This document shows positions 6,101 to 21,277 of a stretch of 53,855 nucleotides of DNA, piece after piece. The translations under genes and the position numbers were made by a program. The DNA comes from a virus (lineage: Duplodnaviria; Caudoviricetes). Position 1 is the first letter of the stretch. The number at the start of each line of letters is the position of its first letter. The notes beneath the pieces were generated by a model. That model saw nothing but the letters and a program-made list of their open reading frames with translations, had not been told where the DNA came from and made no database searches. The DNA lies in the IMG/VR virus record IMGVR_UViG_3300025617_000031, positions 1 to 53,855 of that record; one strand, written 5' to 3'.

Positions 6101-8249
6101 CCGTAACTGTTCCGGAAATATTAACATCTCCAGACACAGACAAATTATCTTCCATTACAACATTAGCATTAAATGTGGTGGTGTTTGAAATTTCTACTGT
6201 TCCTGTAACAGTCGTATTCCCGACGAAAATTTCATTTGCAATGAAGTCTTTTTGAGAAATCAAATCTCCACGAGTAATGATTCTTCCCTTAACTTCTGAC
6301 TGTCCCATAACGGTCATGTTTGCATTTACTGTTGTGTTGGCACCAAAAAAGGGAACAGTTTTCGACGACAGATTAAAACGTCCGTCGACGACTGTGTTGC
6401 CTTGGAGTACTACGGGTCCGTCAGAAGTAAATCCTCCTACTACCCCCTCGATTGCTAGTCTTCCGTGAACAGTTTCATTTGTAACTGAGAGGTCATCAAC
6501 ATGAGCATTCGCAAACGATCCCTTAGTTGTAATTGTATTTCCAGACGAACCTAAGTTAATGTCAGAATTAATGGATACTAATCCATTTAAGTTTGTTACA
6601 CCATCAACATTGAGTGTGCCATCGGATCCGATATGCGCACCGGAAGTCGTATTGATACTATTTGCAAACATGTTTTTAGCATTGATATTGCTAGTAACAT
6701 TTAAATCATGGTTCACGTTTACGTTGTCAATATACGCAGATGCCCATGCCCTAGTTCCAGTACCAATGTTGTACTGTGATCCAACTTTGGGTGTAAAGTT
6801 TGATGCGACACCCTGACCACTAAGTGTGCCTAAAGAGAGTTCGTCAATTTCTGCTCTACCATCAATAAACAAATTTCTCCATTCAGCACCTTGTGCACCC
6901 AGATCATATTGATCGTCAGATGTTGGTGTAAATGAAGAAGAAATAGTTGTAGATCCATTAATTAAAATATTATCATTACCATCACCGAGAGTAACGTCAC
7001 CACTTACCGTCATAGATCCAACTATGTCGGTATTCGCACCGACAGTTAAATTATCACCGACAGAAAGATTGGAAGATAATACAGTGTTGCCTACAACACT
7101 TAATGCATCACCAACAGTTAAATAAGATCCTACAGTTAAATAAGATCCTACAGTCGAGTACGATCCAACAGTCGAATGCCCTTCTGTAGAACTATTTCCA
7201 CTGACACTAATGTTTTCGGTGATGTCAATATTTCCTAAGACATCTCCAACGACTCGCAAATCTCCGGGTAGTGTAAAATCTGATCCACCTGAATTTAAAT
7301 TGTTACCATTGATGATTAAATGACCGTTACCAGTAATGTTGCCAATTTCTACATTACCAGTAAGACGCATTGCATCAATATCTAAAGTTCCAATTAAAGT
7401 AGAGTTTCCTTTAACTACGATACCTGCGTTGGCTTCAACCGGACCGTTAAACAGAACTTCTTCAGAGTTGCCGTCAACAACCATGATAATTTTATTTTCA
7501 CCATTAACTACAAATGGAACCGCACCACCGTTTTCGTTAAAGAATACCGAACCATCCGTTTTAAAGGTATGAAGAACGGTATTTGCAGAGTTTCTGATTT
7601 CCATCTTCGACAGACCACCAGAGTCTGCCAACTTTAATACAAAATTTGTTTCTTCAAATGTGTCAGTATCTTCTAGATAAACGTATGAAGTATCACCCGT
7701 ACCTGTAATAAACTTAATAGGTGGTGTTGTGTTTGTAGATCCCTCAAATTCAAAATCTTGGTTTATACCGGAAAGAATTAAAGGAAGTGAGTTTGATTGC
7801 AACTCATCGAAATCGGAAAACTGAATGAAAGAGAAATCGAATCGTTCCCCATCCATTTTAATATATTGACCAGTCGTGCCCCCAGTCATGCGAATTCTTG
7901 ATGCGTCTGGAAGGAATAAACGATTAGTACCAGTAATCGTAGTCATATCAACATTACCATTAAATATGGTATTAGATGAAACGGTAAGAAGTGTTGAGTT
8001 AAATTCTGCATTTGAATTAATTTCTAATGGTGCAGAAACAATCGTATTACCACCAGACAATGATGTGGTTCTTAGATCAGATGAAGAAAAAATTCCTTCA
8101 ACATGCCCGTTGCCGACAGTATATCCCCCTAGACCCGAATTTAAAACAGTAATTGCGTTGTTCTTGAGAACAGTCGACGCAAAATTTGTGTTTATTCTCC
8201 AAGTATCTAGGTTATCTCCCAGACCTGTGTTAGAAACATTTACAGTCAT
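3147..8249 (-). CDS. Long tail fibre protein with C-terminal Peptidase S74 intramolecular chaperone
   Basis: 1700 aa, G/N/S/T/V-rich beta-helical repeats; C-terminal ASDRTLKENI...HDIGVIAQDVE..FPE...KAVKYERL..LIEAVKEL is the S74 autocleaving chaperone signature. Confidence 0.9.
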   Translation of the reverse strand: MTVNVSNTGLGDNLDTWRINTNFASTVLKNNAITVLNSGLGGYTVGNGHVEGIFSSSDLRTTSLSGGNTIVSAPLEINSNAEFNSTLLTVSSNTIFNGNVDMTTITGTNRLFLPDASRIRMTGGTTGQYIKMDGERFDFSFIQFSDFDELQSNSLPLILSGINQDFEFEGSTNTTPPIKFITGTGDTSYVYLEDTDTFEETNFVLKLADSGGLSKMEIRNSANTVLHTFKTDGSVFFNENGGAVPFVVNGENKIIMVVDGNSEEVLFNGPVEANAGIVVKGNSTLIGTLDIDAMRLTGNVEIGNITGNGHLIINGNNLNSGGSDFTLPGDLRVVGDVLGNIDITENISVSGNSSTEGHSTVGSYSTVGSYLTVGSYLTVGDALSVVGNTVLSSNLSVGDNLTVGANTDIVGSMTVSGDVTLGDGNDNILINGSTTISSSFTPTSDDQYDLGAQGAEWRNLFIDGRAEIDELSLGTLSGQGVASNFTPKVGSQYNIGTGTRAWASAYIDNVNVNHDLNVTSNINAKNMFANSINTTSGAHIGSDGTLNVDGVTNLNGLVSINSDINLGSSGNTITTKGSFANAHVDDLSVTNETVHGRLAIEGVVGGFTSDGPVVLQGNTVVDGRFNLSSKTVPFFGANTTVNANMTVMGQSEVKGRIITRGDLISQKDFIANEIFVGNTTVTGTVEISNTTTFNANVVMEDNLSVSGDVNISGTVTVGGQIQLGDSDTDLITTEGKFANAYLIDATVQNLNVAGSVVSNVVFDDVVTLAGNTTMGSYGHFIDQQTKGIAQFNRLVVTDVETKLVGLQNPDFHAQFYSNSYFSSNVVIDGDVQITGTTSFYGDIELPSNVVISQANGVFRNLLDSRGDTRLGIGDSNTVIFNALVDGHIVPKTNGFNLGRTGLGKYWDNVYANTYVFSDGLRWNNQQEAEKIIISSNGKIHSNNAIENSSISYSKMEYLIDSFDAKEYGNTSNIPVFTVNRQGAITNISEVVVNAISAFEYSGAGIFNIVGKNNVTYTATITANSLPNSLLSTIEAINPNNYGNTIAIPTLSVNDKGLITSISTVTPDTVDTLEYDATNDRLRINTHSGQNKDVSIARATTTSRGVASFSADQFSVDASGVVTLASAEEGAVIGISDTYQEIEVSRDAGVVTIGLPSDVRIQNDLTVDNNLLVSGFARVSGNTIIDGNLTVAGNTVTIEATDLSVEDPFITIASGQGLPTLDAGITVDRGFENDVSIRWNETIDRWQFTNDGENYANVLFTTDVPDTTYTPSFSGISGGAGVNFNITEYIDGTLNQNYAMELREGNNIEITANDNNTLTITGTDTITNIGDGITNGSGDITFTGTGGTVTSFDVLTKTLEVATDLNAYFTGSAFNSSTDVLTLSRGGTDVQVNLGGLNNTLNEVLGLGNVTQLPIKAGTYGTYDSTSTLYLTRNETNETILEASGEAYKINAQGLDRNVQISSDGKEFMFFMDSGLNRIGIGKSDPGVDFDVSGTVRADYLRGSINYSQIADSPPDFTDLTIRDQDESTIIINGNTIWSVVGSNGLETVASAPGGENKTLTVQVDTDGTISTGSLGVGIIGSGIIGEIRATNDITAFAASDRTLKENIQPIENALDKVKSINGVTYDWKDEYIERRGGEDGTFVRKHDIGVIAQDVEQVFPEIVAERDDGTKAVKYERLVSVLIEAVKELSAEIDELKKNK
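7114..7185. repeat. 18-bp in-frame tandem repeat (2 exact plus 2 diverged units) in the tail fibre gene
   Basis: acagttaaataagatcct x2, acagtcgagtacgatcca, acagtcgaatgcccttct; encodes (E)GHSTV-GSYSTV-GSYLTV-GSYLTV. Confidence 0.85.
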
Positions 8250-8296: not shown

Positions 8297-8803
8297 CTAA
8301 ATCGAGAACATATACTTAAAAGCAATAGTGTAACGAGGTTCCATTACATATAATGCAAACGGTCTAGCACTGTGTAGAACATTTGCGGGGAACACTGAAA
8401 TGCGTCCCGGTTTTGGCATGACTGCTTTGACGAGTTCTTTATCCTCATCATAAAAAACAGTTTCACCACCCCATTCGTAATTATAATTTTTATTTACATA
8501 ATATAAGATGGTTGTGTCAGTTTCATATTTAGAGTCATAGTGAGACTGTGGTGTCTCATTATTCTTTATCTTATTACAATACCATCGATACGGATCACTG
8601 CGTTCTGGTATTAAATGCTTGAAGCAATCTTGCAATTCCAACAGCATAGGATCGTCAAATTTAAAGTCTGTAGAATGTCCTTGCGACAAATGGGTTTCCC
8701 CGATGTCCACCTCCACCCCTTTATATTCAAGAGAATTAACATACTCTTCCAGTCTTTCTTGAAGAACCTCACTCACCAATCCATCATATACGTCGATCAT
8801 CAA
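8297..8803 (-). CDS. 2OG-Fe(II) oxygenase (prolyl-hydroxylase-like)
   Basis: HYD...TILYYVN...WGGETVF...PKPGRISVFP..LH...RYTIAFK: HxD...H triad plus 2OG-binding Arg. Confidence 0.9.
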   Translation of the reverse strand: MMIDVYDGLVSEVLQERLEEYVNSLEYKGVEVDIGETHLSQGHSTDFKFDDPMLLELQDCFKHLIPERSDPYRWYCNKIKNNETPQSHYDSKYETDTTILYYVNKNYNYEWGGETVFYDEDKELVKAVMPKPGRISVFPANVLHSARPFALYVMEPRYTIAFKYMFSI

Positions 8804-9441
8804 TGATCCTTTTTATACATAATATTTTCGTAGTCAAATATACTACGCATCTCTTTAGATGCAAAATTAAATGCAATACTAATTCTTGTAGTGTCACTGG
8901 TATGCGACATCACACCGTGGTTTAACCATGACGGAAAAATCAAAATATCTCCAGTCTGCGGTTTAATTTTAATAACTTCTTGCGCATCGTCACTGTCAAA
9001 AAATATGTCATCATAGTTTGCTTTTAACGGAGTATAAAGCATAATTTCCATATTTTCTTCATCAGGAACCTCGATGTAAAATACTCCCGAGATTATACAT
9101 TCTCTGTGATCATGATACTCTTGATACTGATATTTTGTTTGGTAGTTTAAAAACATATTAGTCATGATCAGTTCATTTGGATCATGCTTCCACCCTCTTT
9201 CAATTGCGTATTCTTTTACTTGAGAAGAGATGTCCATTGCTACAGAATGAAATTGTTTTCTTTTAAAAAGTTGACTGTCGTATGCGTATGTAGACCAGAC
9301 ATGACAATTCCAAGGTAGGTTTGTCATGTCATCTGTTTCTTTTTTCACATCTTCGGCAACCTGCTTTAGATGTGCGACATGTCTTTTATTATCCACAAGT
9401 TTCCCATGGAACACAGGAACATTAAACAAATTTTTAATCAT
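8800..9441 (-). CDS. 2OG-Fe(II) oxygenase-like protein (TIGR02466-type)
   Basis: HDH..ISGVFYI...GDILIFPSWLNHGV...RISIAFN motifs. Confidence 0.88.
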   Translation of the reverse strand: MIKNLFNVPVFHGKLVDNKRHVAHLKQVAEDVKKETDDMTNLPWNCHVWSTYAYDSQLFKRKQFHSVAMDISSQVKEYAIERGWKHDPNELIMTNMFLNYQTKYQYQEYHDHRECIISGVFYIEVPDEENMEIMLYTPLKANYDDIFFDSDDAQEVIKIKPQTGDILIFPSWLNHGVMSHTSDTTRISIAFNFASKEMRSIFDYENIMYKKDH

Positions 9442-9661
9442 CCAACAACCTATCCAATTTATTCAATAACAAATCCATTTTATTTTCAAGTGACTCCACT
9501 CGATTTTCAATACTCTTATTCTTCTTGCGCATTTCTCTTTGTCTTCGATATGCTTCAAGTGCTTCTCTATCAGTATTGATTAATGCCTTTGAGTGTCTAT
9601 CTCTGAGAAGTCTCTCATCATCCTCAATATAAAAATATCCAGTATTTCTTTCGATGGTCAT
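9434..9661 (-). CDS. Small conserved phage protein with C-terminal coiled coil
   Basis: ATG at 9661 directly follows the upstream stop; LRDRHSKALINTD motif; heptad tail VESLENKMDLLLNKLDRLL. Confidence 0.7.
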   Translation of the reverse strand: MTIERNTGYFYIEDDERLLRDRHSKALINTDREALEAYRRQREMRKKNKSIENRVESLENKMDLLLNKLDRLLDD

Positions 9662-9662
9662 A

Positions 9663-11183
9663 TTAAATCTGTAGTGCAATTACTCGCACATCACCTATTC
9701 TAGGAACGTCTGAACTAACCGATGCAGTAATTACAATTTTAACAGAAAAAGTTAAATATCCAGTAAAAGTAGCACCCGCATTATTGGTGTATTGGACTTC
9801 ACCACTGTCTCCGGTCCGATCCGCAGTTGGAATCACATACTTATATTCTTTCTGATCATCAAAGTTACCAGAAATGGAATAGGTATCTTGAGAAGTTTCC
9901 TGCGTCATCAGTTTCCAATTTTTTTCTTCGAAAGTTTCATCATCAGAAGAATTGTGGATTTTGTAATAAACGTAAAGTTCACTTCCTGCGGGTTTATATG
10001 CGTCAAGATAGACATTCATATCTTCTGCATCTAACCCGTCCTCTAGTGTCACACGACGTGTAATATACTTTGCAAGAGCGTTGCCTCCACTCACTCCATC
10101 TTCACCTGTGACATCTGCGTTGACTAAATTTGTGATCTGATATGAACTAAATTTATCATCGTCAAACGCACACGAAACATTCTGTTGGGTTGAAGTTAAT
10201 GTAATTGTTGCAACTGAAGTTTTAGATCCACCAAAATTTGCTTGTTCGTTCGAATAACTATAAATCTTTTTAGGTGCCACAAAATTAATTGTGTCATTCA
10301 AATCGACTTCTTTTGCTAGAGGGTCAAGGACACCTGCAGTATTTCTTCCTCTAAGAGAGACAGAAAAATCTGCACCAATTTGCTCAAGTTGCTCTGACTT
10401 AAGGAATGATGAATCAACGACAATATCATCGATAGAAACAATTAAACCAGTAGCACCCGACTCTTCACCCCTAATATAAGATCCCGCAGTGAACGGTTCG
10501 TTAACAGGATTTAAAACGATTGATGTTGCGGCACCTTCGTAGTAGTCTTCAAAGATACCTGATCCCGCAGTGTTGCCATAGTTAGTATTCGAGGATACCA
10601 AGTTTGAAGTCAAGTTCGCAGAAACATTTTCTCCCTGAATAAAACGTCCAGAGGTATTTGCAACTGTGATCCAATCAGTATCACCATTTGTAAATTGGAT
10701 TGTGCCAAGAGTGTCAAAATTGGCAGTCTTGAGAGTATACTTCAAATCATACTCTTGAAATGGTGTGAATGTGCGACCGTCGGACGAAATGAAAAGAACA
10801 CCAACACCTGCTTGTTTAGAGATGATGCGATCTGATCCAATAACAGTATCACCGAGACGAGCAGTCCATACATTGTAATTCGGAGAATCTGAACCGGGGA
10901 TAATAACCACCGCATAATCAGTTTCACCTTGCAGAAATACAGGAGACTCAAACCAAAATGATGTTGCCGCAAGAGCATCCTCCGAGGTAAAAACCTCCTC
11001 CGGATAAAGAGTAGAACGAGAGAAAGGTAATACCTTTTGAGTAGGAATACCGTTTTGCATCTCATGTAACTGCACTGTTACAGGAAAAGAAGAATCCTTA
11101 GATTGAAAATATAAATCAATCCTTGTGGCATAACATCCACCAATCCTATCTACAAAAAATGATTGTGCTAAAGAATATGCCAT
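9663..11183 (-). CDS. C-terminal half of a DUF4815/VrlC-like virion structural protein
   Basis: Begins MAYSLAQSFFV...TRIDLYFQSKD...PVTVQL...G.P..KVLPFS...AT.F.FESPVFL...GVLFIS.DG.TF.P.QEYDLKY.L and ends VPRIGDVRVIAL; own SD (CAGGAG). Confidence 0.82.
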   Translation of the reverse strand: MAYSLAQSFFVDRIGGCYATRIDLYFQSKDSSFPVTVQLHEMQNGIPTQKVLPFSRSTLYPEEVFTSEDALAATSFWFESPVFLQGETDYAVVIIPGSDSPNYNVWTARLGDTVIGSDRIISKQAGVGVLFISSDGRTFTPFQEYDLKYTLKTANFDTLGTIQFTNGDTDWITVANTSGRFIQGENVSANLTSNLVSSNTNYGNTAGSGIFEDYYEGAATSIVLNPVNEPFTAGSYIRGEESGATGLIVSIDDIVVDSSFLKSEQLEQIGADFSVSLRGRNTAGVLDPLAKEVDLNDTINFVAPKKIYSYSNEQANFGGSKTSVATITLTSTQQNVSCAFDDDKFSSYQITNLVNADVTGEDGVSGGNALAKYITRRVTLEDGLDAEDMNVYLDAYKPAGSELYVYYKIHNSSDDETFEEKNWKLMTQETSQDTYSISGNFDDQKEYKYVIPTADRTGDSGEVQYTNNAGATFTGYLTFSVKIVITASVSSDVPRIGDVRVIALQI

Positions 11184-11663
11184 TTATAACTCCTGTTGAT
11201 TGAATTCTGGCAAATATTTATCTTGTATTACAGAGTCGAAAGATTCCCCATTTGCATCCAGTGGGAGGAGTAATCCTACAATCTCATCATCTGCCATATA
11301 CATACCGTGTCGTTTTTGATATCGTTTTGCAAGTGCGGGTGCTGATGTTGTTGCGTAAATAAAGTCACAACCCGACTCTCTTCCCATATCAATTAATCCT
11401 TGGATCATAACATCAAGTGCACGATCCCGTTGTCTGAGATTACTGTTTGGGTTTGATACAACTGGCCAAATATAACCCATTGGACTGGTAGAACCTAAAT
11501 TTATGAACCCCGCACATATATCATCAACAATCAAACCCTTAGCAAGGTATTTACTAGGGAATGGATCCCACCCAATGGCAGACCACCATTCCTCTAGTTG
11601 TTGATAATCCTCTTCTGGATTATACTCTCTCAAGAATTTTTTCGTTTCCTTTTTCTTGCTCAT
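11184..11663 (-). CDS. Hypothetical protein, probable GNAT-like fold
   Basis: LREYNPEEDYQQLEEWW...ICAGFI...GYIWPVVSNP...RDRALDVMIQGLIDMGRESGCDFIYATT..PALAKRY..HG matches the GNAT secondary-structure pattern. The start is uncertain (ATG 11663 or TTG 11633). Confidence 0.6.
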   Translation of the reverse strand: MSKKKETKKFLREYNPEEDYQQLEEWWSAIGWDPFPSKYLAKGLIVDDICAGFINLGSTSPMGYIWPVVSNPNSNLRQRDRALDVMIQGLIDMGRESGCDFIYATTSAPALAKRYQKRHGMYMADDEIVGLLLPLDANGESFDSVIQDKYLPEFNQQEL

Positions 11664-14600
11664 CAGCAAATTCTTCCCATTTATCAAAATATACTTCACC
11701 CATTTGCTTTACTGCCTCTTGCTCCACAACCTCAAAGTAGTCTGTGAACTCAATACCATTGATATCAATTCGACGGTTTTCACAACCGAATACATAAACG
11801 ACTACTCCTTTACCCACATCGACTTTTTCTGACTGTGGAATATCTCTTACACGAATCCACTCACCGTCGTGCTTGACCATATGTGATCCTGCGACTTTAA
11901 TTCCACGATACTCATATAAATCCGTATTCCAGAATTGTCCTAAAGCAAATACTCCACCACCTAGTTTAACACGATCTCCAAGTTTAATCAACTCTACTGG
12001 TACCTTGGTTCCGTCTTCCATTGTAATAAGAGTACCTGCCAAGAAACATCCACGACGACATGGTGGTGGAACATACTTCGAACTGATAAGGTTACGAGTT
12101 TTAGTGTTGGTCTTAGTATTAGTGACTGAAGTGACAACAGTACGAGAATCTTTAACATCAACCTTTTGGAAGTTAGCATTTCTTGTTGAGATAACTGTTT
12201 CTTGTTTAGTTTGATGCATGCCAGATGCTGAATATAATGCTTCTGCGGCAGTTGTATTATCGGTGCCGTTATCCGCAACATCAGTGACACGTAAAGGTTT
12301 CGTACCAACTCGGAACTTTAAAGAAGAATTGTTTGGTAGGAAATACTCAAACTTACAACGACCATTATCATCCGTAACAATCTCAGCACCATAGGCACCA
12401 GTTACACGGTAAGTGTATCTCCTTTTAAATCTTCTGTATAACCAACTACGAATCCAACGAGTTCTGGTCACTTCTTTGACGACAGGACGACAATATTGTG
12501 TGACATCCTCACCATCAAAATACACATACAGTCTGGTATTCGGACGTAATTTTTCACCTTCCACATAAATGAGTTTACTTCTCATATATGGGATAACATT
12601 CATATCAACGACTTTGGCACCCAAATGTGTCTTATTCACTTCTGGCACTGCTTCTAATTTAAATCCAGTACGGGATTGCTTTTTACCAAATACACGTTTT
12701 GTAGTATAATTCTTCTGGTTGTATGTGTTATTATAGTTACCTTCTTTTTTGGTGTATGAAGAATCTCTTAAACGAGTCGTTTTTGATGACAGTTGTCCAG
12801 AAAAATTCGTTTGCCAAGAATTCCATGAAGTTCCCCACGCATTTGAGAGCACTTCCCAATTATCGTAGTTACCTTGTTGGTTAACTTGCAAATCTGGTTT
12901 GGTTGTAGTATCGACCCATTGATCTCCATCTGGTGTCAATGTAAGTTCACCAATAAAATCGAAAAATTCAGCATCAGAAATTCTAAAGGCAGTGGAGGCA
13001 ACCTGTTGTTGAATTAGATCAGAGTGCAAATAATCCAATGTGATTAAAGGACCGGGTTCGGGTCTTCTGATCTCTGTGATAGTAGCGGTAATACCAGATA
13101 CTCCACCAGTAATTGTTTCACCGACAGAAAACTCTCCTTCAACACTTTCGACAAGAATCGAAACATTATTGTCTTCAGCAGTGACATAGAAAAGACTACC
13201 GGATGCACCTGAAGTCGCACCTGTAATCGTTTCTCCAAACTTGTTTCCTGCGGCGTTTGAAGCATTTGTAATTCTCAATAAGAAATCTCTGCAACGACGA
13301 GTAGTGTTACTCGATGAATCTTCATCATGGATGAAGTCGATGTTTCTCAGTTTAAATGTCGGACGACCCTCTTTTCTATCAGCATCTATTGCAATTTTAT
13401 AATCAGGGTTCGTAACATCACCAACATTATGACCAGTGAAAGGATCAACCAAAATGCCGTTTTTGAATCGTGTGTTGCCTTCTGCATCTTGAATTGTAAG
13501 ATCTGATGCGGATCTTTCTAACAACGAAAGTGATGTATAATATTCAAGTCCTCGGATTCTCTGATCCAATTCTCCAATATCTTTCATTGTGTAACGACGA
13601 GTGTTGAAAACTTTTGCGACGACTTGCAAATCTTGACGTGATATATTCTTACCGACGAATGGTGAAATTGATGGGTAAGGAGGAATGTCAATCGATGCAA
13701 TAGTCATCATGTTTTCATTATCAAGAGGTTCTGTTGGATCTGTGGATGGTACACCTCTTTTAACAACAATCTGTCCACCAGAATCGATCATCAACTTGTC
13801 AATACGACCAAAGTATGCGACCAAATCGGCAGAAAATACTTCGTTTGGATTTGATAAAAATTGACCTTCCGGTGAAACATTATATGTTGTTGCAGAAGTT
13901 GGGTTAGTCGACGCACTTCCAATCGTCGCAGAGATCGTCGCAGAATTTTCTTTAACTGGACGGATATCAATCGAGTTTCTTAAATTGATTCGATTACCGC
14001 TGGTAGGATCTTGGAACAACGGAATTTCATATGTTTTTATTGTTGTATCCGATATCAAATTATCATTTATAGGATAGGAGTCAACAGAGAAATAACCTGC
14101 ACCCTGAGAGTAATCTGGTTGAAAGAATTTCAATTTAACAAGTAATTGACCTGTTGGTGCTGAACCACCCACTACAGTAGATATTGAACCGTTTTGATAG
14201 AATCCTGCTCTCTGTCCATTATCCAAAAGGTATCTTGATTTTACATCAGTGTCAGATTCAGATGGAGTAACATTGAAGTTTGTAGATTGCCAAATGCCTT
14301 CAATAGAAAACACATCAGAGAAACCGAGACTCCAAGGACCGTTTGTGCCCGCACTATGAGTATTCGGATTAATGATAACATAAGAAGTTCTGAGAAGTTT
14401 ATTAGTTTCTCTGGCATTTATTTTACTGAGATTTATGATGACACGAGCAGTAATACCTGCAGTTAAATTTTCTTCTATGTCAATTTCTGCAGATGTACTG
14501 GAGTTGATGGAAATCGAACGAGTTCCTGTCAAACCTTCTTCAGACATATCGATGATTTCACCAGAAGAGATAATTTTGTCGATAGAATCTGAACTGTAAG

Positions 14601-16683
14601 TACTTGTCAAGTTATTAGTGAGTGTTAAGTGTGTAGCATCTTGAATACTTTCGATTTGATATACATCAGTTCCATCAAGACGAATCAAGGTGAAAGGTTT
14701 TAATTTATTAAAGTCTGTTCCGGAACCAACCAATTGATCGGTTCCAGAAGAACCACTGACAGAACCAGACATTGTAGAGTAACCAGTTGAAGTTGCTACC
14801 ACAGTAAACAGACGATCTTTCTGAGTATCGTTTAATGCACCAGTAGTTGTATAAATCTGTGACGCATCACCAGTAGAGATATTCTGCACTCTACCATTCT
14901 GGTCAATATTTACATCAAAACCCTTTTTAAAGGTAAATGAAGTTTCGACATTGTTTGTATCATCACGAACAGTTTTAACTGCTTCATATGGGAAAGAAAA
15001 TATCAAACTCGTGAAAGAAGGTTCTTTGATGGAAGCAACACCGTTTTCTAAAACTACATCACCAATGGCATTTTTTCCTACACCACCTGCATTCGCAATA
15101 AACACAGATCGAACATCTTGAATTGAACCCGATGTCATCTTAATATCTTGTAAGTAAGCACGGAACTCACCCGATGGTTGATCGGAATCATTATCATCAT
15201 AGACAAAGTTTCTTAATACCGCAGTACCAATTTCTGAACCGGGTGCACCCGTCAGATCATATGTTCCATTTGTAATAGCATCACCTTCAGCATTCCTCAA
15301 AGAAACAATGGGGAGCAAAGTGCTATCAAAAACTCCGGCAGCGTCTCTGATCATCAAATACTGACCATAGTTAGATGCAACTGATTGTTGTTCAAATAAT
15401 TCTGTGTCTACACCCTTATCTACATCACGATAAATTGATGCTTTTTGTTCGAATTCAAAACGGAAACCCTGAACATAACCAACACCACCTTCGATGCCTA
15501 TCCCTAGTTTGGTTGACAACCCACCTTTTTCTGCAGTGTATAAACCCTGATTGTCATCCCCTTTCAAATGTTCTTTGATGTTTATCATGAACGGACGAAT
15601 GTTAAAGTCACCATTAATCTCTGAAACATTTGTCGCAATTGCATCACCAAGAATATTATAATCTTTCTGTTCGGCAACCGCAGCTTCAGTGCCTTGGTCA
15701 ATTGTAATAAGTTCAGTAAATCCTGTTGTATCCGTTGGTTCACCAGTTGTTTCGATTTGTGGAGGTGAAACAACAACTTCTTCTCTAGTTTCTTCATCGA
15801 TTGTTGTTGTCGGTTCAATAACAGTAGTTGCTTCTTCTAGAGGAGCAATTGGTTCTGGATCTGGTGCCGCCGCATTTGCACCTCCACCATTATTATCTTC
15901 GGTGTTGGTAGATACAACAATTGATTCGGAAATAGGAGTTATTCTTAGATATGTTGATAATTTAAGACGATCAGCACCCGGTGCGGAAAAGTTAGATGCT
16001 CCTTGCGCAGGGTCTAACAAAGTCGCATCAGTTTCAGATCCAATTAGTTCTTCTCTTATCCCAAAACCAATTTTAACTGAAGGAAGGGTTGTATACCTAC
16101 CTGCAACAATAGACTGATCATGATGACGAATAAAGTGCCCTTTAGCATAGATGATACCATCACCCAAACGGAACACAATACCTTTGCCAGTTGGGGTGTC
16201 TTCAGAATTGACTACAACTGCAGTGGTACCATCAGAAAATGTCAGTACTTCTTCAGGTCCGACAACTGCGGTTCCTCCAGTAGTACCCGAGTTAGTATAG
16301 GCAACATAAAGAGTCTTTTTATCTGCAGACACCTGAGAACCATCAAGAACTTTACGAACAACCCCTGTCATTCCTGATGTTCCCGCAGTAAAACTCAATC
16401 CTTCTTTGGAGTTTACATCTACGGGGAATCCTGTGGTGTCATCATCTAAAATTTTAATGAAATTGACTTCTGTCCTTGTTTTAGGGCAACCTGTGACAAT
16501 GGCTCCTTCTGCAAATATATGATTACCAAATCTCTCAATCTGATTTTGAAGGATACTTTGCGTCTGCGATAATTCTCTTGCCTGTACTGCAAATCCGGGA
16601 CGGAATAAAACTCGATGAAAATTCTTGCTTTCGTCGTAGTCGTCATAGTAAGGACTTTGATTGAGGTTAGTATCTAATGCCAT
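11620..16683 (-). CDS. DUF4815/VrlC-like large virion structural protein (N-terminal part) fused to a C-terminal Hint domain
   Basis: N-terminus NLNQSPYYDDYDESKNFHRVLFRPGFAVQARELSQTQSILQNQIERFG; RRYTMKDIG.LDQRI.GLEYYTSLSLLE; RFKNGILVDPF; C-terminal GCFLAGTLITM Hint block A. Confidence 0.88.
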   Translation of the reverse strand: MALDTNLNQSPYYDDYDESKNFHRVLFRPGFAVQARELSQTQSILQNQIERFGNHIFAEGAIVTGCPKTRTEVNFIKILDDDTTGFPVDVNSKEGLSFTAGTSGMTGVVRKVLDGSQVSADKKTLYVAYTNSGTTGGTAVVGPEEVLTFSDGTTAVVVNSEDTPTGKGIVFRLGDGIIYAKGHFIRHHDQSIVAGRYTTLPSVKIGFGIREELIGSETDATLLDPAQGASNFSAPGADRLKLSTYLRITPISESIVVSTNTEDNNGGGANAAAPDPEPIAPLEEATTVIEPTTTIDEETREEVVVSPPQIETTGEPTDTTGFTELITIDQGTEAAVAEQKDYNILGDAIATNVSEINGDFNIRPFMINIKEHLKGDDNQGLYTAEKGGLSTKLGIGIEGGVGYVQGFRFEFEQKASIYRDVDKGVDTELFEQQSVASNYGQYLMIRDAAGVFDSTLLPIVSLRNAEGDAITNGTYDLTGAPGSEIGTAVLRNFVYDDNDSDQPSGEFRAYLQDIKMTSGSIQDVRSVFIANAGGVGKNAIGDVVLENGVASIKEPSFTSLIFSFPYEAVKTVRDDTNNVETSFTFKKGFDVNIDQNGRVQNISTGDASQIYTTTGALNDTQKDRLFTVVATSTGYSTMSGSVSGSSGTDQLVGSGTDFNKLKPFTLIRLDGTDVYQIESIQDATHLTLTNNLTSTYSSDSIDKIISSGEIIDMSEEGLTGTRSISINSSTSAEIDIEENLTAGITARVIINLSKINARETNKLLRTSYVIINPNTHSAGTNGPWSLGFSDVFSIEGIWQSTNFNVTPSESDTDVKSRYLLDNGQRAGFYQNGSISTVVGGSAPTGQLLVKLKFFQPDYSQGAGYFSVDSYPINDNLISDTTIKTYEIPLFQDPTSGNRINLRNSIDIRPVKENSATISATIGSASTNPTSATTYNVSPEGQFLSNPNEVFSADLVAYFGRIDKLMIDSGGQIVVKRGVPSTDPTEPLDNENMMTIASIDIPPYPSISPFVGKNISRQDLQVVAKVFNTRRYTMKDIGELDQRIRGLEYYTSLSLLERSASDLTIQDAEGNTRFKNGILVDPFTGHNVGDVTNPDYKIAIDADRKEGRPTFKLRNIDFIHDEDSSSNTTRRCRDFLLRITNASNAAGNKFGETITGATSGASGSLFYVTAEDNNVSILVESVEGEFSVGETITGGVSGITATITEIRRPEPGPLITLDYLHSDLIQQQVASTAFRISDAEFFDFIGELTLTPDGDQWVDTTTKPDLQVNQQGNYDNWEVLSNAWGTSWNSWQTNFSGQLSSKTTRLRDSSYTKKEGNYNNTYNQKNYTTKRVFGKKQSRTGFKLEAVPEVNKTHLGAKVVDMNVIPYMRSKLIYVEGEKLRPNTRLYVYFDGEDVTQYCRPVVKEVTRTRWIRSWLYRRFKRRYTYRVTGAYGAEIVTDDNGRCKFEYFLPNNSSLKFRVGTKPLRVTDVADNGTDNTTAAEALYSASGMHQTKQETVISTRNANFQKVDVKDSRTVVTSVTNTKTNTKTRNLISSKYVPPPCRRGCFLAGTLITMEDGTKVPVELIKLGDRVKLGGGVFALGQFWNTDLYEYRGIKVAGSHMVKHDGEWIRVRDIPQSEKVDVGKGVVVYVFGCENRRIDINGIEFTDYFEVVEQEAVKQMGEVYFDKWEEFADEQEKGNEKILERV
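11623..12048 (-). other. Hint autoprocessing domain (non-splicing, Hedgehog/BIL-like) plus short helical tail
   Basis: Block A CFLAGTLITMEDG...VELIKLGDRV; block B VAGSHMV; block F VYVFGCENRRIDING; ends FTDYFE instead of HN[CST]. Confidence 0.82.
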
Positions 16684-16694
16684 TTAAGTTGCCT

Positions 16695-18473
16695 TTAAAA
16701 ATCTAAAATAATTTTAATGTCTTCGGTCTGTTCACTGTCTCGAACAATTTTTTGTACATTCGATGTATATAGTATCTCTCCCGAAAAAATTTCTGCTTCC
16801 GGTTCAGTAATTCCTTTAATTGTTGCAATTTTCGTTTCAAAATCATTTGCCATGATGACATCATCAACTGCAAAAGGAACATAATCAGAATAACTATTTA
16901 CATCGTTAGTGTAGAGAACATAAAAGGATGTATCCGTTTCCGTTTCATCATCTTCTATTGTCACTACATTAGCATTAGCTGCTTTATATGCGTTTGCTAA
17001 TGATTTAGCAATTCGATCTGAAGAGTTCAGATCCGTAATAAATTCTAATGTGCCTTCTTCTGCTCTAAAACGCAACCTTTCATTTGTAATCTTATCTCCA
17101 ACCTGCAGAGGGTTAACAGGGGTGTTGTTATCCATTTGATTATAAGATATCTTATATTTATGCGTCAATCTCAATGTGACAGGAGAATTTGATGTATTTG
17201 CGATATTTGTATTTGTTGTAAAATTATTATTAGCATTTACTTTTAAAATCGGATCTTTAAGGAGACTAATAGATCTGTAGTTAATATCAGTTGACACATA
17301 ACCATTTCCATTAGATGATAACCCCTCTTCACCTACAAGTTTAGCATTTAACATCACTTGATCTGCACCAAGTTCTCTTACGGGATTTGATCCATGTCCA
17401 CCAACTGGAGAAATGATCGGTTCAGCAAATGCCCCACGTCCATGTACAGTATTTGCAGAAATAATAACTTCTGCCTGAGTATATTTCTCCCCACCATCAA
17501 TAACAATAACATCAGATAATTTTGTTAAAGAATTGATTTTAGAATATGCTTGGGCATTCTTTCCGTCACCAATAATTGTAACTGACGGACCTATGTCAAC
17601 TCTTGATGTTTGATCTGGCACTGTGGAAAACGCACTATTGACAGTCAAAATTTTAGAAGCACCAGAATACTGCACAATTCGTCTTAATTGACCTGCACCC
17701 TGACCAGAGGTAATGTACAAAGAAGATCCATTATAAAAATTATTAATTGGTGATGGTGGGTTAGCACCTGCCGCACTGAGTTTCACAAAAGTCAAGTCTG
17801 CATTTTCAACAACTGCATTTTCTACTTTTGAATATTCCAATCCACTTTCAATAAGTTTAATTATTTCTATGGAACCATCAACTGAATTGTTTTGCACATC
17901 AAGTTGTCTTGATGATTCTGTTGTCCCATCCGTAACTTCTATTTTTTTAACAGGCATGTGATTTGCTGTAAGAAACTTTTCCGACTCACCTAGAGTGATT
18001 GAGTACAAATACTTCCAAGTGTACCCATCAGAAGTTGTAAATGGTTGCAAACTATATCCAGTAGGTTTCACCGTCGACGCAGAGGAATTATTATTGAAAA
18101 GGCATTTGTATACATTTAATTCATCAGTCAAAACATAAAAATCTTTACTATACAATTCAGTGTCTTTATCATCATACATTGCATAATAATTTCCGTTTGC
18201 CCAATTCACACGACGGACAACGTGTGACACGTCGTCACCAGTAATCTTCTTTGCGGCGATTGCTTTTCTCCACACGTCAACATACTTATCTCTAGGAGAT
18301 TCTACAGGTATTTCTGGGACAGGTTCGTTAACATATTCTTTATTGTTACCGATCATAGCATAAAGAATTACTGAATTTTTTTCCTGTGAAGTATCATCAG
18401 CACGAATTGCTTCGATAAACGATTCTGCCGCAGTAATAGAAAGTTCTTTTGTTGCGTACTTATAATCAGTCAT
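16695..18473 (-). CDS. gp8: Baseplate wedge subunit gp8
   Basis: AAKKI...VVRRVNW..G.YYAMYDD...FYVLTDELNVYKCLFNN...KPT...TSDGYTWKYLY; ends R..EQTEDIKIILDF; synteny gp6-gp7-gp8. Confidence 0.88.
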   Translation of the reverse strand: MTDYKYATKELSITAAESFIEAIRADDTSQEKNSVILYAMIGNNKEYVNEPVPEIPVESPRDKYVDVWRKAIAAKKITGDDVSHVVRRVNWANGNYYAMYDDKDTELYSKDFYVLTDELNVYKCLFNNNSSASTVKPTGYSLQPFTTSDGYTWKYLYSITLGESEKFLTANHMPVKKIEVTDGTTESSRQLDVQNNSVDGSIEIIKLIESGLEYSKVENAVVENADLTFVKLSAAGANPPSPINNFYNGSSLYITSGQGAGQLRRIVQYSGASKILTVNSAFSTVPDQTSRVDIGPSVTIIGDGKNAQAYSKINSLTKLSDVIVIDGGEKYTQAEVIISANTVHGRGAFAEPIISPVGGHGSNPVRELGADQVMLNAKLVGEEGLSSNGNGYVSTDINYRSISLLKDPILKVNANNNFTTNTNIANTSNSPVTLRLTHKYKISYNQMDNNTPVNPLQVGDKITNERLRFRAEEGTLEFITDLNSSDRIAKSLANAYKAANANVVTIEDDETETDTSFYVLYTNDVNSYSDYVPFAVDDVIMANDFETKIATIKGITEPEAEIFSGEILYTSNVQKIVRDSEQTEDIKIILDF

Positions 18474-21277
18474 TATAAAATGCTTCCTGTTGTATAGTAT
18501 ACATTTGCATCAGAAATACTATCTTCGTTCCAAGTAGTTGTTATATTTGCAAATGTTCCGTTTGCGTTCACTATATTTAGTAGTGCTTTTCTGAATACTT
18601 TTGGTTCTGTCTCAACAATAATATATTCACCATTAGAAAATAAAGAAAACACATTAGAGGTGAAATGCATGTCGGACGAACTGTTGCTGATCGAAACATT
18701 AGCATCAGACAAAACTCTTTTCTCATTAGAAACTGAGGTTTCTATTGTCAAGTCGACTTCAGAATGCGACAAATAACGACCGAATAGTGCTTGTCCTGAA
18801 GGATGTACAAGAAGTTTAGCAATATCTCGATATCTTTCAAGGGCAAGTGGAGCAAGAACTTCATATGAAAATTCTTGATAAAAACGAGAATCTTGAATAA
18901 ATCCAGACTTACTTGAAATATGCGAACGTGATGTTGCATAGTAACCTTCTGCGTTTGCTACACCCAAAAGTGATACATCAATTAATGCTCTCTGTGATGT
19001 GAAAGTGTCACTTTCTTGAATTTCAAGAACCTCACCATCTTCATACGAAACACCAGAATCAATAACTTTCAGTGAAGTCATTGATCCATTAGCACCAAGA
19101 GTAACATCAATATCTGCATTATCACCAAGGATTCCTTTGTCCTCTAATCCGACTATTATACCAGAACCGACCGTAACAAGATTGGTTTGATCTGCAGAAT
19201 CATAAAATTCAATCTGAATTGGTTCCCCATTTACATAATTGATATTACTTGGAAATCTTTGGGATTGATCTTGCCAGATTCTTACGACTAACTCCAGAGT
19301 TCCTGTATTAGAACTTGCTACCTCTTTTGCCGATACTCTGACTTTAACATCACCACTAGCACCACTTGATGATTGCCGAACTCTATCGTTAGAGTCGATT
19401 GTAGTGATTTCCGAATTGCCCGTTGACCAATTTGGTGCAGTATTCTGAACCGTAAGATATACTTCACCAATACCAAGAGCTTTGATAGACGGTTCCACAA
19501 CAGAAACAGTCGGTCTGATTCGATATCCTGATCCACCAACTTCTTCTGATATTGAATCTATAGACCCAATTGTTGTAGAAATAAAATTAAGTAAATCTCT
19601 CAATGGAGTAAACTTATTTTGATGTGCAGTGTTTGCAGAAAATGTTGCAACATTACCAATCGGTGTCAAGGGATCAGTTACTTTTGCCAGTCCTTCATCT
19701 GGAATAAAGTGTTTCATTGGTCCTGTCCCAAAGTAACTAGTTGTGTTTGATGTGGTATTAGATGTTACTGTTAAAAATAATAGATCTCTAACATCACCTT
19801 GATCGTCGTTATACCCACCAGTATTAATCGTAATAATTTTTTTAACCACACCATAGGCACCAGATTTTGCACCGATTAACTCATCTTCCTCTTGAATAAA
19901 CACACCCGCATTATTTCCAATAGTGACGATGTGATGTCCGATAGTGTTCCCATAAAATTGTGATGCAGTTCCTATCACATCACCGTTCGCATATCCGACT
20001 CTGACATCTTCTCCAATTTGAAAGTTTTTGTAACCATCAATAATGAAAACACCCGCACCATCATCATCTTCTCGTATCAATTTTATAATACCATTTGCAC
20101 CACTATCGTCACCATAAATAGATGCACCAGTACCCAAATAAATAGTGTTTGCTATTTCGATCACTGCATTAGAATGTTCTCTATAATCTAGATAAGATGA
20201 CACTTCTTGATTATCTAAAGGAATACCAAGATCACTCGTACCGAGAATGATATCTTTAATCTGATCCATTTTAACTAATTGACCATTCGCAGAAGCAACA
20301 AATGGAGATGCTGTTCCAAAAATAGTATTAGAATTAAATAAAGTTGTGCAAAGAGTGATTGCAAATTTATCACTAAGGTCACTTTCATAAATTTCAAAAC
20401 TCGCAGGTTGAACACTATCCGCACCTTCAATTCTAATCAATGATTTCGCACTAAAATCAGAAGTTGTTGACGTGTATCCAGAACCACCTGTTCTGACAGT
20501 AAAGTTGATAATGCCTTTTTTATCTTCTATACCAGTGACAATTATCTTTCCATAAAGTCCTTTCTTTTCTGAGATAATATCAAACTTATCACCAATAGCA
20601 TAGTCCGCACCACCAGAAAGAATATTGAAAGAATGAATACCTGCTTCAACCGGAACAGGAACATATTCCTCATCCAATTCATCTGCAGAAACAAACTCAC
20701 TGTTTATAAAAAAACCGTTGATATTAGACAATAAAAGCAAATCGACATCTCGACCACGTACTACTCGTCGCACAACATCTTCCACAAGTGCAAACGCACC
20801 AGATTCCAATCCAGTTATAGTTTGACCAATTAGATTATAGTTTTGATCTCGGTGAACAGTGACAAGGTATCTGTCAATTCTCCAGTTTCCATCAGAAACT
20901 TTTAAAATCTGATCGGAAGGATAGTTGATCTCGACATCTTCGTTAAAAAGGATTCTAAAAAGAAGTTTGTATGCGGAAAGAGTTCCCCGAGATTGATAGA
21001 AGTCTTTAATGTGCTTTGCAAGTAATCTTTTATTAGCAACGATTGAATCTGGAATCGATGGAATGATATCTTTTCTGAAATACTCAATAAAGCTTTCTAA
21101 TGATTCATCAATATTATGATTTTGCAATAGAGTATTTGTTTGCGATATGATGCCTCTCTCTTGTTCAAGGAAGTTATAGTATGCTTCCATGAAAGAAAGA
21201 AAATTCTTCCCTTCCTCTTCGTAGAAAGAAGGGAATTGATTTCTTACCAATGCTGATATGAAATTTTCATTTTTCAT
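18473..21277 (-). CDS. gp7: Baseplate wedge initiator gp7-like protein
   Basis: QFPSFY.EEG..F..FMEAYY; KDFYQSRGT..YKLLFRILF; IQDSRFYQEFSY...LVHPSG..LFG; lies between gp6 and gp8. Confidence 0.75.
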   Translation of the reverse strand: MKNENFISALVRNQFPSFYEEEGKNFLSFMEAYYNFLEQERGIISQTNTLLQNHNIDESLESFIEYFRKDIIPSIPDSIVANKRLLAKHIKDFYQSRGTLSAYKLLFRILFNEDVEINYPSDQILKVSDGNWRIDRYLVTVHRDQNYNLIGQTITGLESGAFALVEDVVRRVVRGRDVDLLLLSNINGFFINSEFVSADELDEEYVPVPVEAGIHSFNILSGGADYAIGDKFDIISEKKGLYGKIIVTGIEDKKGIINFTVRTGGSGYTSTTSDFSAKSLIRIEGADSVQPASFEIYESDLSDKFAITLCTTLFNSNTIFGTASPFVASANGQLVKMDQIKDIILGTSDLGIPLDNQEVSSYLDYREHSNAVIEIANTIYLGTGASIYGDDSGANGIIKLIREDDDGAGVFIIDGYKNFQIGEDVRVGYANGDVIGTASQFYGNTIGHHIVTIGNNAGVFIQEEDELIGAKSGAYGVVKKIITINTGGYNDDQGDVRDLLFLTVTSNTTSNTTSYFGTGPMKHFIPDEGLAKVTDPLTPIGNVATFSANTAHQNKFTPLRDLLNFISTTIGSIDSISEEVGGSGYRIRPTVSVVEPSIKALGIGEVYLTVQNTAPNWSTGNSEITTIDSNDRVRQSSSGASGDVKVRVSAKEVASSNTGTLELVVRIWQDQSQRFPSNINYVNGEPIQIEFYDSADQTNLVTVGSGIIVGLEDKGILGDNADIDVTLGANGSMTSLKVIDSGVSYEDGEVLEIQESDTFTSQRALIDVSLLGVANAEGYYATSRSHISSKSGFIQDSRFYQEFSYEVLAPLALERYRDIAKLLVHPSGQALFGRYLSHSEVDLTIETSVSNEKRVLSDANVSISNSSSDMHFTSNVFSLFSNGEYIIVETEPKVFRKALLNIVNANGTFANITTTWNEDSISDANVYYTTGSIL

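Follow-up and report, generated by a model that had tools for sequence, protein, structure and literature searches.

Why would a phage carry the gene for a large tail-associated virion protein in two pieces, with a Hint domain closing the first piece and a small gene standing before the second? The question is raised by a viral contig of the IMG/VR database (IMGVR_UViG_3300025617_000031; 53,855 bases, ~31% of the genome by estimate), henceforth referred to as the 'window', by which we mean this whole stretch of DNA; its source is, as read from its genes, an uncultured marine or estuarine T4-like myovirus. Three minus-strand open reading frames (ORFs) are concerned (Table 1): ORF1, which carries the N part of the virion protein VrlC followed by a Hint domain and an acidic tail; ORF2, a small protein with a predicted GNAT fold; and ORF3, the C part of VrlC. 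Hint domains drive the chemistry of inteins and of Hedgehog signalling, and protein engineers rely on them heavily. We find a compact (~100 aa), non-splicing Hint paired with this GNAT-like protein on no fewer than 150 contigs of marine phages; three or more kinds of virion protein carry it, and the phages belong to more than one morphotype. The reading that we favour, and hold to be somewhat better than an even bet, is that of a self-removing Hint cassette with a dedicated GNAT partner, the two VrlC halves assembling non-covalently.

Two halves of one VrlC gene

ORF1 matches Pfam DUF4815 (PF16075) with 128.6 bits, against a cut-off of 30, and the profile phrog_358 at E 4e-246; ORF3 matches phrog_358 at E 2e-92, over profile positions 1424-1584 and further. 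When the two were compared with the single VrlC polypeptide (2045 aa) of Pelagibacter phage Mosig, ORF1 could be aligned to residue 1518 and ORF3, from LAQTF on, to residues 1531-2045 (30% identity, E 1e-61), which places the break in a linker of ~12 aa. Judged by these profile matches, with PF16075 above its threshold, and by the colinearity with a single-ORF VrlC, ORF1 and ORF3 are the colinear halves of one VrlC gene, as had been proposed in a first-pass annotation made by a model from the letters and ORF translations of this DNA. Its account of the layout was accurate as well: all three minus-strand ORFs lie where it had placed them, ORF1 runs through ...PPPCRRG/CFLAGT (the slash marks the junction) into a Hint-plus-tail of 142 aa (Cys1546-Val1687), and ORF3 has its own Shine-Dalgarno sequence (AGGAG, 6 nt upstream) and an ATG (11183-11181) that directly adjoins the TAA of ORF2 (11186-11184). 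ORF1 and ORF2 overlap by 44 nt, and a scan of 9300-12300 for promoters and terminators gave counts no higher than in shuffled sequence. On one point the annotation was not confirmed, namely in taking the linker of intact homologues to be Pro-rich: in the two intact homologues that we read, Mosig and S-B64, the linkers are R/T-rich, with GWWDP or GWYDP, and the PPP stretch is a trait of the split VrlC forms, not of these intact linkers.

VrlC is normally a single polypeptide of ~2000 aa, and all six of the cultured-phage relatives that we inspected, among 1646 phage records matching ORF3, have it as one ORF. To this we can add a survey that was blind to Hint, being seeded with the C part and covering the best 80 of at least 586 IMG/VR relatives: here 76 loci were intact, one (L178) was split with Hint and ORF2, two were split without Hint and one could not be judged. 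Both Hint-free splits (L255 and L256) are broken at the same linker and contain neither Hint nor ORF2/GNAT, from which it follows that the VrlC halves need no ligation; the linker is evidently a permissive break-point, and the halves can work as separate chains. The first-pass annotation had held that its proposal would fall if homologues were routinely split at this position without Hint and GNAT; such splits do exist (2/80), though they are not routine. In L255 (2821-3500), a SET-domain gene (PF00856, 56 bits) lies between an N part that ends in a long poly-Gly/Ser stretch and a C part whose first residues are MEIRSPLAQSF; in L256 (1400-1700), there is only a 68-nt gap between the halves, and the C part starts with MKLVDPLAQSF.

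The arrangement seen in the window recurs. A VrlC N part ending in Hint was found in 17 IMG/VR loci, and every one of the 13 that are long enough shows the order Hint, ORF2, C half, with the C halves beginning 2-14 aa before [LI]AQ[ST]F and, in 13/13, with Met-Ala. A further 12 DUF4815 proteins (1054-1700 aa), partly from the same contigs, end in the same Hint (50-76% identity). The earlier view that this is a maintained system and not a broken gene is thus borne out by its recurrence in diverged phages (Hint identity 43-76%) with the catalytic-type residues invariant in 32/32 sequences. A search by exact peptide words of IMG/VR, from which records near the window may have been missing, returned no close relatives of ORF2 and ORF3. 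In one locus (L157, 4229-9441), even the VrlC N part is divided between two ORFs (1072 and 657 aa) where the near-identical L159 (4228-9441) has a single ORF of 1737 aa; the extra break is either a further split or a sequencing error.

Physical reality of the junctions

The first-pass annotation had allowed that the arrangement might be an assembly chimera unsupported by reads. Contigs of other runs support it: a single 1561-nt contig of run X2 covers 10783-12343 with 4 differences from the window, and contigs of X3 (11058-12343), X4 (11114-11523) and X5 (11538-11978) bridge one or both of the ORF junctions, with no joints or indels reported. The same arrangement is present in three studies besides the likely source of the window. 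A chimera is therefore ruled out by independent contigs across both junctions and by recurrence in diverged phages. Contigs of X2/X3 and X4/X5 diverge from the window at 11019-11060 and 11731-11763, which probably reflects co-occurring strain variants in ORF3 and in the Hint tail.

A predicted Hint domain of non-splicing type with a conserved tail

The Hint of the window has the motifs CFLAGT (block A, at residue 1546), AGSHMV (with the block-B His) and VYVFGCENRRIDINGIEFTD (block F/G-like), and so contains both the block-A Cys nucleophile and the block-B His of the HINT superfamily; the Thr position of the block-B TxxH is Ala or Val in this Hint. We take VYVFGCENRRIDINGIEFTD, compared by eye with the intein consensus, to represent the F and G blocks of inteins with Asp replacing Asn. 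A profile built from seven sequences of this Hint type matched the N-terminus of the PI-SceI/VMA intein in block A (E 1.7e-4) and the N fragment of the NEQ068 split intein of Nanoarchaeum in block B (E 0.004), and the nearest neighbours by Atlas language-model features were the Vint, Hint_2 and Hint clusters (0.90-0.96). A tblastn search of 50,697 phage records with the Hint gave no match at E<=0.01, and at that sensitivity no cultured carrier was found.

Conservation was assessed in a set of 32 non-redundant cassettes (41-50% identity to the window Hint). Cys1, Phe2, Gly5, Thr6, the block-B His and a C-terminal F-T-D-Y-F are invariant in 32/32, and Gly stands at position -1 of Cys1 in 27/32, including the G/CF junction of the window. 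In all 32, the domain ends in F-T-D followed by Tyr, with neither His-Asn nor a Cys, Ser or Thr at +1 as a class 1 intein would have. Since there is no His-Asn end and Tyr follows the Asp, canonical splicing is excluded, and the non-splicing Hint type expected from the first reading of the sequence stands. ORF3 contributes no C-terminal intein fragment (IntC) either, as its MAYS runs into LAQSF and it aligns to the host protein from residue 5. The C-terminal motif, the residue at +1 and the lack of IntC thus all speak against a canonical or split intein, which we reject.

The Hint is followed by a tail of ~39 aa with a net charge of about -7 (counted from the sequence), in which a pattern of YF-E, a Gly and F..W is conserved across the 32 cassettes, whatever the host protein. 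The tail may be a docking segment or resemble the adduct recognition region (ARR) of Hog-type proteins. Ahead of the Hint, the window has a Cys/Arg motif, PPPCRRG/C (12049-12075, ORF1 residues ~1537-1545), which reads CRRGCRR(G)/C in a sister group (P0165, P0167, L158, L162 and L168-L172), and other VrlC-Hint lineages have a Gly-rich junction in its place. The Cys that lies four residues ahead of Cys1 could take part in a redox-sensitive disulfide of the kind known from some inteins.

Linkage of Hint and ORF2 across phages

The linkage of Hint and ORF2 was surveyed from both sides, in the best 80 of 125 metagenome relatives of ORF2 and in the best 80 of 178 IMG/VR relatives of the Hint. In the former, this Hint closes an ORF that lies upstream on the same strand, mostly as the direct neighbour of ORF2, in 73/80 loci, and in the seven loci without Hint the contig gives at most 592 nt upstream. 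In the latter, an ORF2 homologue lies downstream in 73/80, and the other seven loci end less than 750 nt past the Hint ORF. On this evidence of gene order, ORF2 is the obligate partner of this Hint type.

VrlC is a minority host. In a census of 74 complete cassettes, the window included, the Hint ends Gly-rich proteins of ~475 aa with one Hint in 40, Gly-rich proteins of ~685 aa with two tandem Hints in 15, VrlC N parts in 15 and other large proteins in 4, such that 59/74 complete cassettes end non-VrlC proteins without a C half. The ~475-aa hosts match Gly_rich_2 weakly, and fibres beside the Gly-rich Hint proteins carry an end that resembles the G2 intramolecular chaperone (IMC). The double-Hint proteins (685-733 aa in L007 (5249-7435), L095, L106, L109, L110 and L155) have a first Hint that is canonical-looking and ends in VVHN then Lys-Gly, with the window-type Hint directly after it. 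In three loci (L111, L113 and L118), VrlC is intact as a single ORF, and the cassette is instead on a different protein, of 1002-1275 aa, that matches no family; in L113 (3-4607 and 6040-9887), and likewise in L111 and L118, tail-sheath-like genes follow this protein.

In 45 cassettes, an oxygenase resembling Asp/Asn-beta-hydroxylases (PF05118, E 1e-9 to 1e-11) and a short-chain dehydrogenase (SDR) are encoded between the Hint ORF and ORF2 (for example L112 9416-10637, L162 9435-10605 and L168 9384-11276), and the cassettes of L168 and L170 have a second oxygenase. Between VrlC-type and Gly-rich-type cassettes, the oxygenases are 46% and the SDRs 49% identical, about as diverged as the Hint; this similar divergence between host classes indicates that Hint, oxygenase and SDR were inherited together. 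The expanded cassette looks, from its gene content, like a virion-protein modification module. No homologue of the cassette oxygenase or SDR was found in the window, which holds ~31% of the genome, at E<0.1. On a tree of the Hints, the host classes cluster, with 5 changes compared to a mean of 21 when shuffled. The association with VrlC needs 3 changes, and the non-VrlC clade of L111, L113 and L118 nests among VrlC cassettes, from which we conclude that the cassette has occasionally changed its host gene.

ORF2 has a GNAT-like fold

An AlphaFold2 (AF2) model of ORF2, built on an alignment of 109 sequences, reached a pLDDT of 93.1 and a pTM of 0.86 and supersedes a single-sequence fold (pLDDT 52.9). 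With this model, Foldseek returned 15 hits at E<=0.001, of which those listed are all acetyltransferases and the top ones GNAT acetyltransferases (E 1e-4, probability 1.00, TM 0.5-0.58). VIA alignment with acetyltransferases gave Z 12-13 at a root-mean-square deviation of 1.9-3.5 A over 117-128 aligned residues with 6-19% identity, the tied neighbours being RimI, Ard1/Naa10 and polyamine and aminoglycoside acetyltransferases. The model has no regular beta6 and beta7 strands. By sequence, the family is barely recognisable: Pfam Acetyltransf_1 matches 5/109 ORF2 relatives at E<=0.01, the window ORF2 matches no Pfam family even at E 10, and searches of PDB sequences gave chance-level matches only (SHV beta-lactamase 0.03, WTAP 0.14). 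ORF2 is GNAT-like by its modelled fold, and it is as a fold that the earlier description of a GNAT-like ORF is confirmed. A homing endonuclease between the halves was considered and is ruled out by this fold.

The family is large: at E<=1e-3 its profile finds 2557 representative clusters, of which 763 reach E<=1e-10, and most of the proteins have 125-145 aa. Cys50 of ORF2 is Cys in 119/120 unique Hint-linked ORF2s, compared to Cys in 77, Ala in 41 and Val in 10 of 149 representatives of the wider family, whose context is undefined; we regard this pattern as a lead and not as proof, as the Hint-linked copies are also kin. One member of the family is gp116 of Cellulophaga phage phi18:3 (L175, 6001-6411), whose neighbours have been seen in virions by tandem mass spectrometry, gp116 itself not being so annotated, a pattern that would suit an enzyme acting during assembly. 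Complex prediction for ORF2 with Hint and tail gave a score of 0.00 against a mark of 0.32 and was counted neither for nor against binding. A search for Hint-GNAT fusions and longer forms of ORF2 found none save P0168 and P0072, which is weak evidence. P0168, which comes from one contig of 2210 nt, joins an ORF2-type N part with a Peptidase_M13 fragment and is probably a chimera or artefact; P0072 (295 aa) is a tandem duplication of the ORF2-type domain.

Relation to known systems

The B-type bacterial intein-like (BIL) domains (Amitai et al. 2003; Dassa et al. 2004, as reviewed in PMC7765530) have the N-terminal motifs of inteins, no C-terminal splicing motif, and occur in variable proteins. 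Set against this published description, the window Hint agrees in motif content: it has the intein N-terminal motifs, lacks His-Asn and a +1 nucleophile, stands in variable non-enzymatic proteins and would be expected to cleave itself off. The double-Hint proteins also recall the BIL set, in that an A-type-like copy (...VVHN, then Lys) precedes the window-type Hint. Unlike a B-type BIL, the Hint described here has a phage virion protein and not a bacterial one as its host, its own FTDYF end, the acidic tail and a constant GNAT-fold partner. With Hedgehog and Hog proteins it shares a C-terminal Hint after G/CF, a short conserved region next to it and, if active, release of the cargo via a thioester, and the nearest Pfam family is Vint, a Hog-type Hint. 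However, its tail is ~39 aa long and acidic with no sterol recognition, no cholesterol-type nucleophile is known here, and the possible adduct machinery would act in trans (the GNAT, with or without oxygenase and SDR).

The arrangement of genes is closest to the 'fractured genes' described in 2009 (PMC2677866), in which a phage gene is in two, a Hint-family element is on the N piece and an unrelated ORF lies between; these, too, are known mainly from marine metagenomes. Unlike fractured genes, the arrangement here has a whole Hint on the N piece, no IntC, a GNAT-fold protein where an endonuclease would stand, and, as host, a virion protein in place of an enzyme of DNA metabolism. The Peptidase_S74 and Peptidase_G2 IMCs of phage fibres offer a further parallel, in that the cassette, too, would be a C-terminal module that removes itself from a fibre-like virion protein. 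These IMCs, however, have another fold, use a Ser-Lys peptidase where this Hint would use a Cys thioester, and have no partner enzyme. ORF2 shares its fold with GNAT N-acetyltransferases (RimI, Ard1/Naa10, polyamine and aminoglycoside), and differs from typical GNATs in its 6-19% identity, the lack of a Pfam match and a degenerate CoA pyrophosphate-loop motif.

Proposed mechanism and alternatives

The chemistry of the favoured reading, which we infer throughout from sequence, starts from the observed anatomy, conservation, Hint-ORF2 linkage and recurrence. VrlC would be made as two polypeptides, the conserved cassette sitting in the linker just before [LI]AQ[ST]F. The Hint would undergo an N-to-S acyl shift at Gly1545-Cys1546; the thioester would then be resolved, with Hint and tail leaving the VrlC N part; the C part, made from its own AGGAG and ATG, would join the N part non-covalently in the virion; and ORF2 would act at the thioester stage or on what results from it. 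Its role might be to trap the shift by acetylating Cys1 at the alpha-amine that the thioester leaves free, to cap a new terminus, or to use the protein thioester as acyl donor to an acceptor. That the GNAT-fold protein is part of the thioester step is suggested by the strict pairing of Hint and ORF2.

Several observations weigh against this reading. The cleavage chemistry is argued entirely from conserved motifs, and the Hint assignment of the ORF1 C-terminus from motifs and profiles: the window protein matches Pfam Vint at E 0.0045 (17.2 bits, below the cut-off of 27) and Hint_2 at E 0.014 (16.2 bits, below the cut-off of 28.4), hhalign aligned the window-type Hint with the canonical first Hint of the double-Hint proteins in block A only (28 columns), and the mapped core of ~103 aa is short for a Hint. 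The invariance of FTDYF, which pure N-cleavage leaves unexplained, suggests that the C-terminal junction may be reactive also. In ORF2, the relevant loop reads RDRALD, with no clean Q/RxxGxG/A coenzyme A (CoA) motif, and ORF2 may not be an acetyl-CoA enzyme at all. Finally, relatives of ORF2 occur without any Hint in phages of Flavobacterium, Cellulophaga and Tenacibaculum, inside structural modules; from these Hint-free relatives in Bacteroidota-infecting marine phages it would follow that the ancestral role of ORF2 was not tied to Hint.

We considered whether the thioester could instead be put to use, as in Hedgehog. Here the thioester on the C-terminal Gly would be resolved by a nucleophile. 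The tail and the GNAT partner would select this nucleophile, the oxygenase and SDR of expanded cassettes would make or modify it, and the mature protein would be left with an adduct or an amide cross-link; we see this as possible, yet well short of probable. GNAT enzymes normally take their acyl group from a thioester, and an obligate Hint-ORF2 linkage is hard to explain with water as the only nucleophile. The G/CF junction is that of Hedgehog (with Gly at -1 in 27/32), the Hint is followed by a conserved tail as Hog proteins have a sterol recognition region (SRR) or ARR (as described in PMC2362128), the prevalence of Cys50 in Hint-linked ORF2s over the wider family (119/120 vs 77/149) is in keeping with it, and so is the co-inheritance of oxygenase and SDR with the cassette. 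Against it, the adduct is argued indirectly, from sequence, ORF2 relatives live in other phages without Hint, no Hint-GNAT fusion was found (weak evidence, as said), and the minimal cassette of the window has no oxygenase or SDR, nor does the ~31% of the genome in the window hold a homologue. Tentatively, the Hint-GNAT cassette, together with the oxygenase and SDR where it is expanded, might be a phage protein-thioester transfer system, in which a protein thioester replaces acyl-CoA and the GNAT-fold partner forms an amide or ester with a specific acceptor. Candidate acceptors are small molecules, another virion protein (through a Lys or its N-terminus) and, in the VrlC phages, the Ala N-terminus of the C half.

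The invariant FTDYF (32/32) would find an explanation if the Hint also cut at FTD/Y by Asp cyclisation, and either freed the ~39-aa tail or spliced it onto the N part by aminolysis. This BIL-type double processing we regard as rather improbable. The Asp stands at the position of the intein Asn, and a 2004 paper in the Journal of Biological Chemistry reportedly describes splicing by BILs without a +1 nucleophile; B-type BILs are reported to cleave their C-terminus by an atypical reaction (PMC7765530). However, the Asp-to-Asn alignment was made by eye alone, and this exact motif has no experimental precedent. Quite unlikely, in our view, is a selfish or decaying insertion, that is, a mobile element or a fractured-gene or intein remnant tolerated in the VrlC linker to no benefit of the phage. 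The linker is indeed an insertion hotspot (the SET gene of L255, the oxygenase and SDR genes inside some cassettes), the three changes on the Hint tree and the nested non-VrlC clade show movement between host genes, and the arrangement is like that of fractured genes (PMC2677866). Yet neither the cassette nor its immediate surroundings encode an endonuclease or recombinase, the Hint is a full domain and not an N fragment, the active-site-type residues and ORF2 are kept across ~50% divergence in several phage types, and the strong clustering of host classes on the tree implies that inheritance is mostly vertical. We give still less credence to the trans-ligation put forward in the first-pass annotation, whereby the N-terminus of the C half would attack the thioester, with or without the GNAT, and restore full-length VrlC. 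The cassette does lie exactly at the VrlC junction, 13/13 C halves begin with Met-Ala and would expose an alpha-amine after removal of Met, and the neighbours of ORF2 include the N-alpha-acetyltransferases RimI and Ard1/Naa10, which are tied with other GNATs within 1 Z. Nevertheless, the C half has no IntC segment and no Cys, Ser or Thr at its start, 'MA' starts are common among the proteins of these phages generally, most cassettes (59/74) are on proteins without a C half, L111, L113 and L118 have the cassette on another protein beside an intact VrlC, and in L255 and L256 the same site is broken without Hint. For these last reasons, re-joining or activating halves, which the annotation had put forward, is not supported as the general function of the module, and the favoured reading, with self-removal of the Hint and non-covalent assembly of the halves, is the one we retain.

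Novelty and significance

A literature search, with supplementary files outside its scope, found nothing linking VrlC/DUF4815 to Hint or intein, or Hint to GNAT in phage virions. The parts (Hint/BIL, GNAT, fractured genes) are known; what is new is an obligate Hint-GNAT cassette on virion proteins that splits VrlC. If the cassette only cleaves itself off, it would be a new self-removing C-terminal fibre module, together with a natural two-piece structural gene. If the GNAT handles the thioester, this would be a new kind of system and a new route to C-terminal protein modification or ligation, with a clear application as a tool. Thioester transfer, if true, would be a viral counterpart of Hedgehog cholesteroylation and would amount to enzyme-assisted ligation without sortase or intein splicing. 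The VrlC linker also appears as a hotspot for protein-modifying genes (GNAT, SET, 2-oxoglutarate (2OG) oxygenases and SDR) in the structural operons of marine T4-like phages, which suggests that the modification of virion proteins is a side of phage biology that has received too little study.

Locus layout and neighbouring genes

Table 1. Positions of the split VrlC gene, the Hint cassette and associated signals in the window
Feature	Position	Strand	Description and basis
ORF1	16683-11620	-	1687 aa; stop TAA 11622-11620
VrlC/DUF4815 N part (ORF1 residues 1-1545)	12049..16683	-	ends ...SSKYVPPPCRRG; PF16075, phrog_358, colinearity with Mosig VrlC
Hint core (ORF1 residues 1546-1648)	11740..12048	-	CFLAGT, AGSHMV, VYVFGCENRRIDINGIEFTD; profile and conservation
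Conserved acidic tail (ORF1 residues 1649-1687)	11623..11739	-	YFEVVEQEAV...; conservation in 32 cassettes
ORF2, small protein of predicted GNAT fold (phrog_17252)	11663-11184	-	159 aa from ATG, 171 aa if GTG at 11699; AF2, Foldseek, VIA
AGGAG ribosome-binding site of ORF3	11190..11194	-	6 nt before ATG; read from sequence
ORF3, VrlC C part	9663..11183	-	506 aa, starts MAYSLAQSF; matches to phrog_358 and Mosig VrlC

Directly upstream of ORF1, at 16695-21277, lie baseplate wedge genes (Pfam and PHROG profile matches). Downstream of VrlC, a repeat-rich fibre of 1700 aa (3147-8249, minus strand) ends in a C-terminal Peptidase_S74 IMC (E 4e-19), which gives the window phage a second self-cleaving C-terminal module, of the classical kind. 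Two neighbouring 2OG-Fe(II) oxygenase genes, PF13759 (E 2e-21) and PF13640 (E 1e-10), are located at 8297-9441 on the minus strand, just downstream of the VrlC C half and its companion ORF. This companion (9434-9679, minus strand) encodes an 81-aa coiled-coil protein of phrog_473 (virion structural protein) and overlaps the end of ORF3; VrlC is likewise followed by a small ORF, of 67-78 aa, in Mosig, S-B64, S-RIM4, vB_OspM_OC and RSP15.

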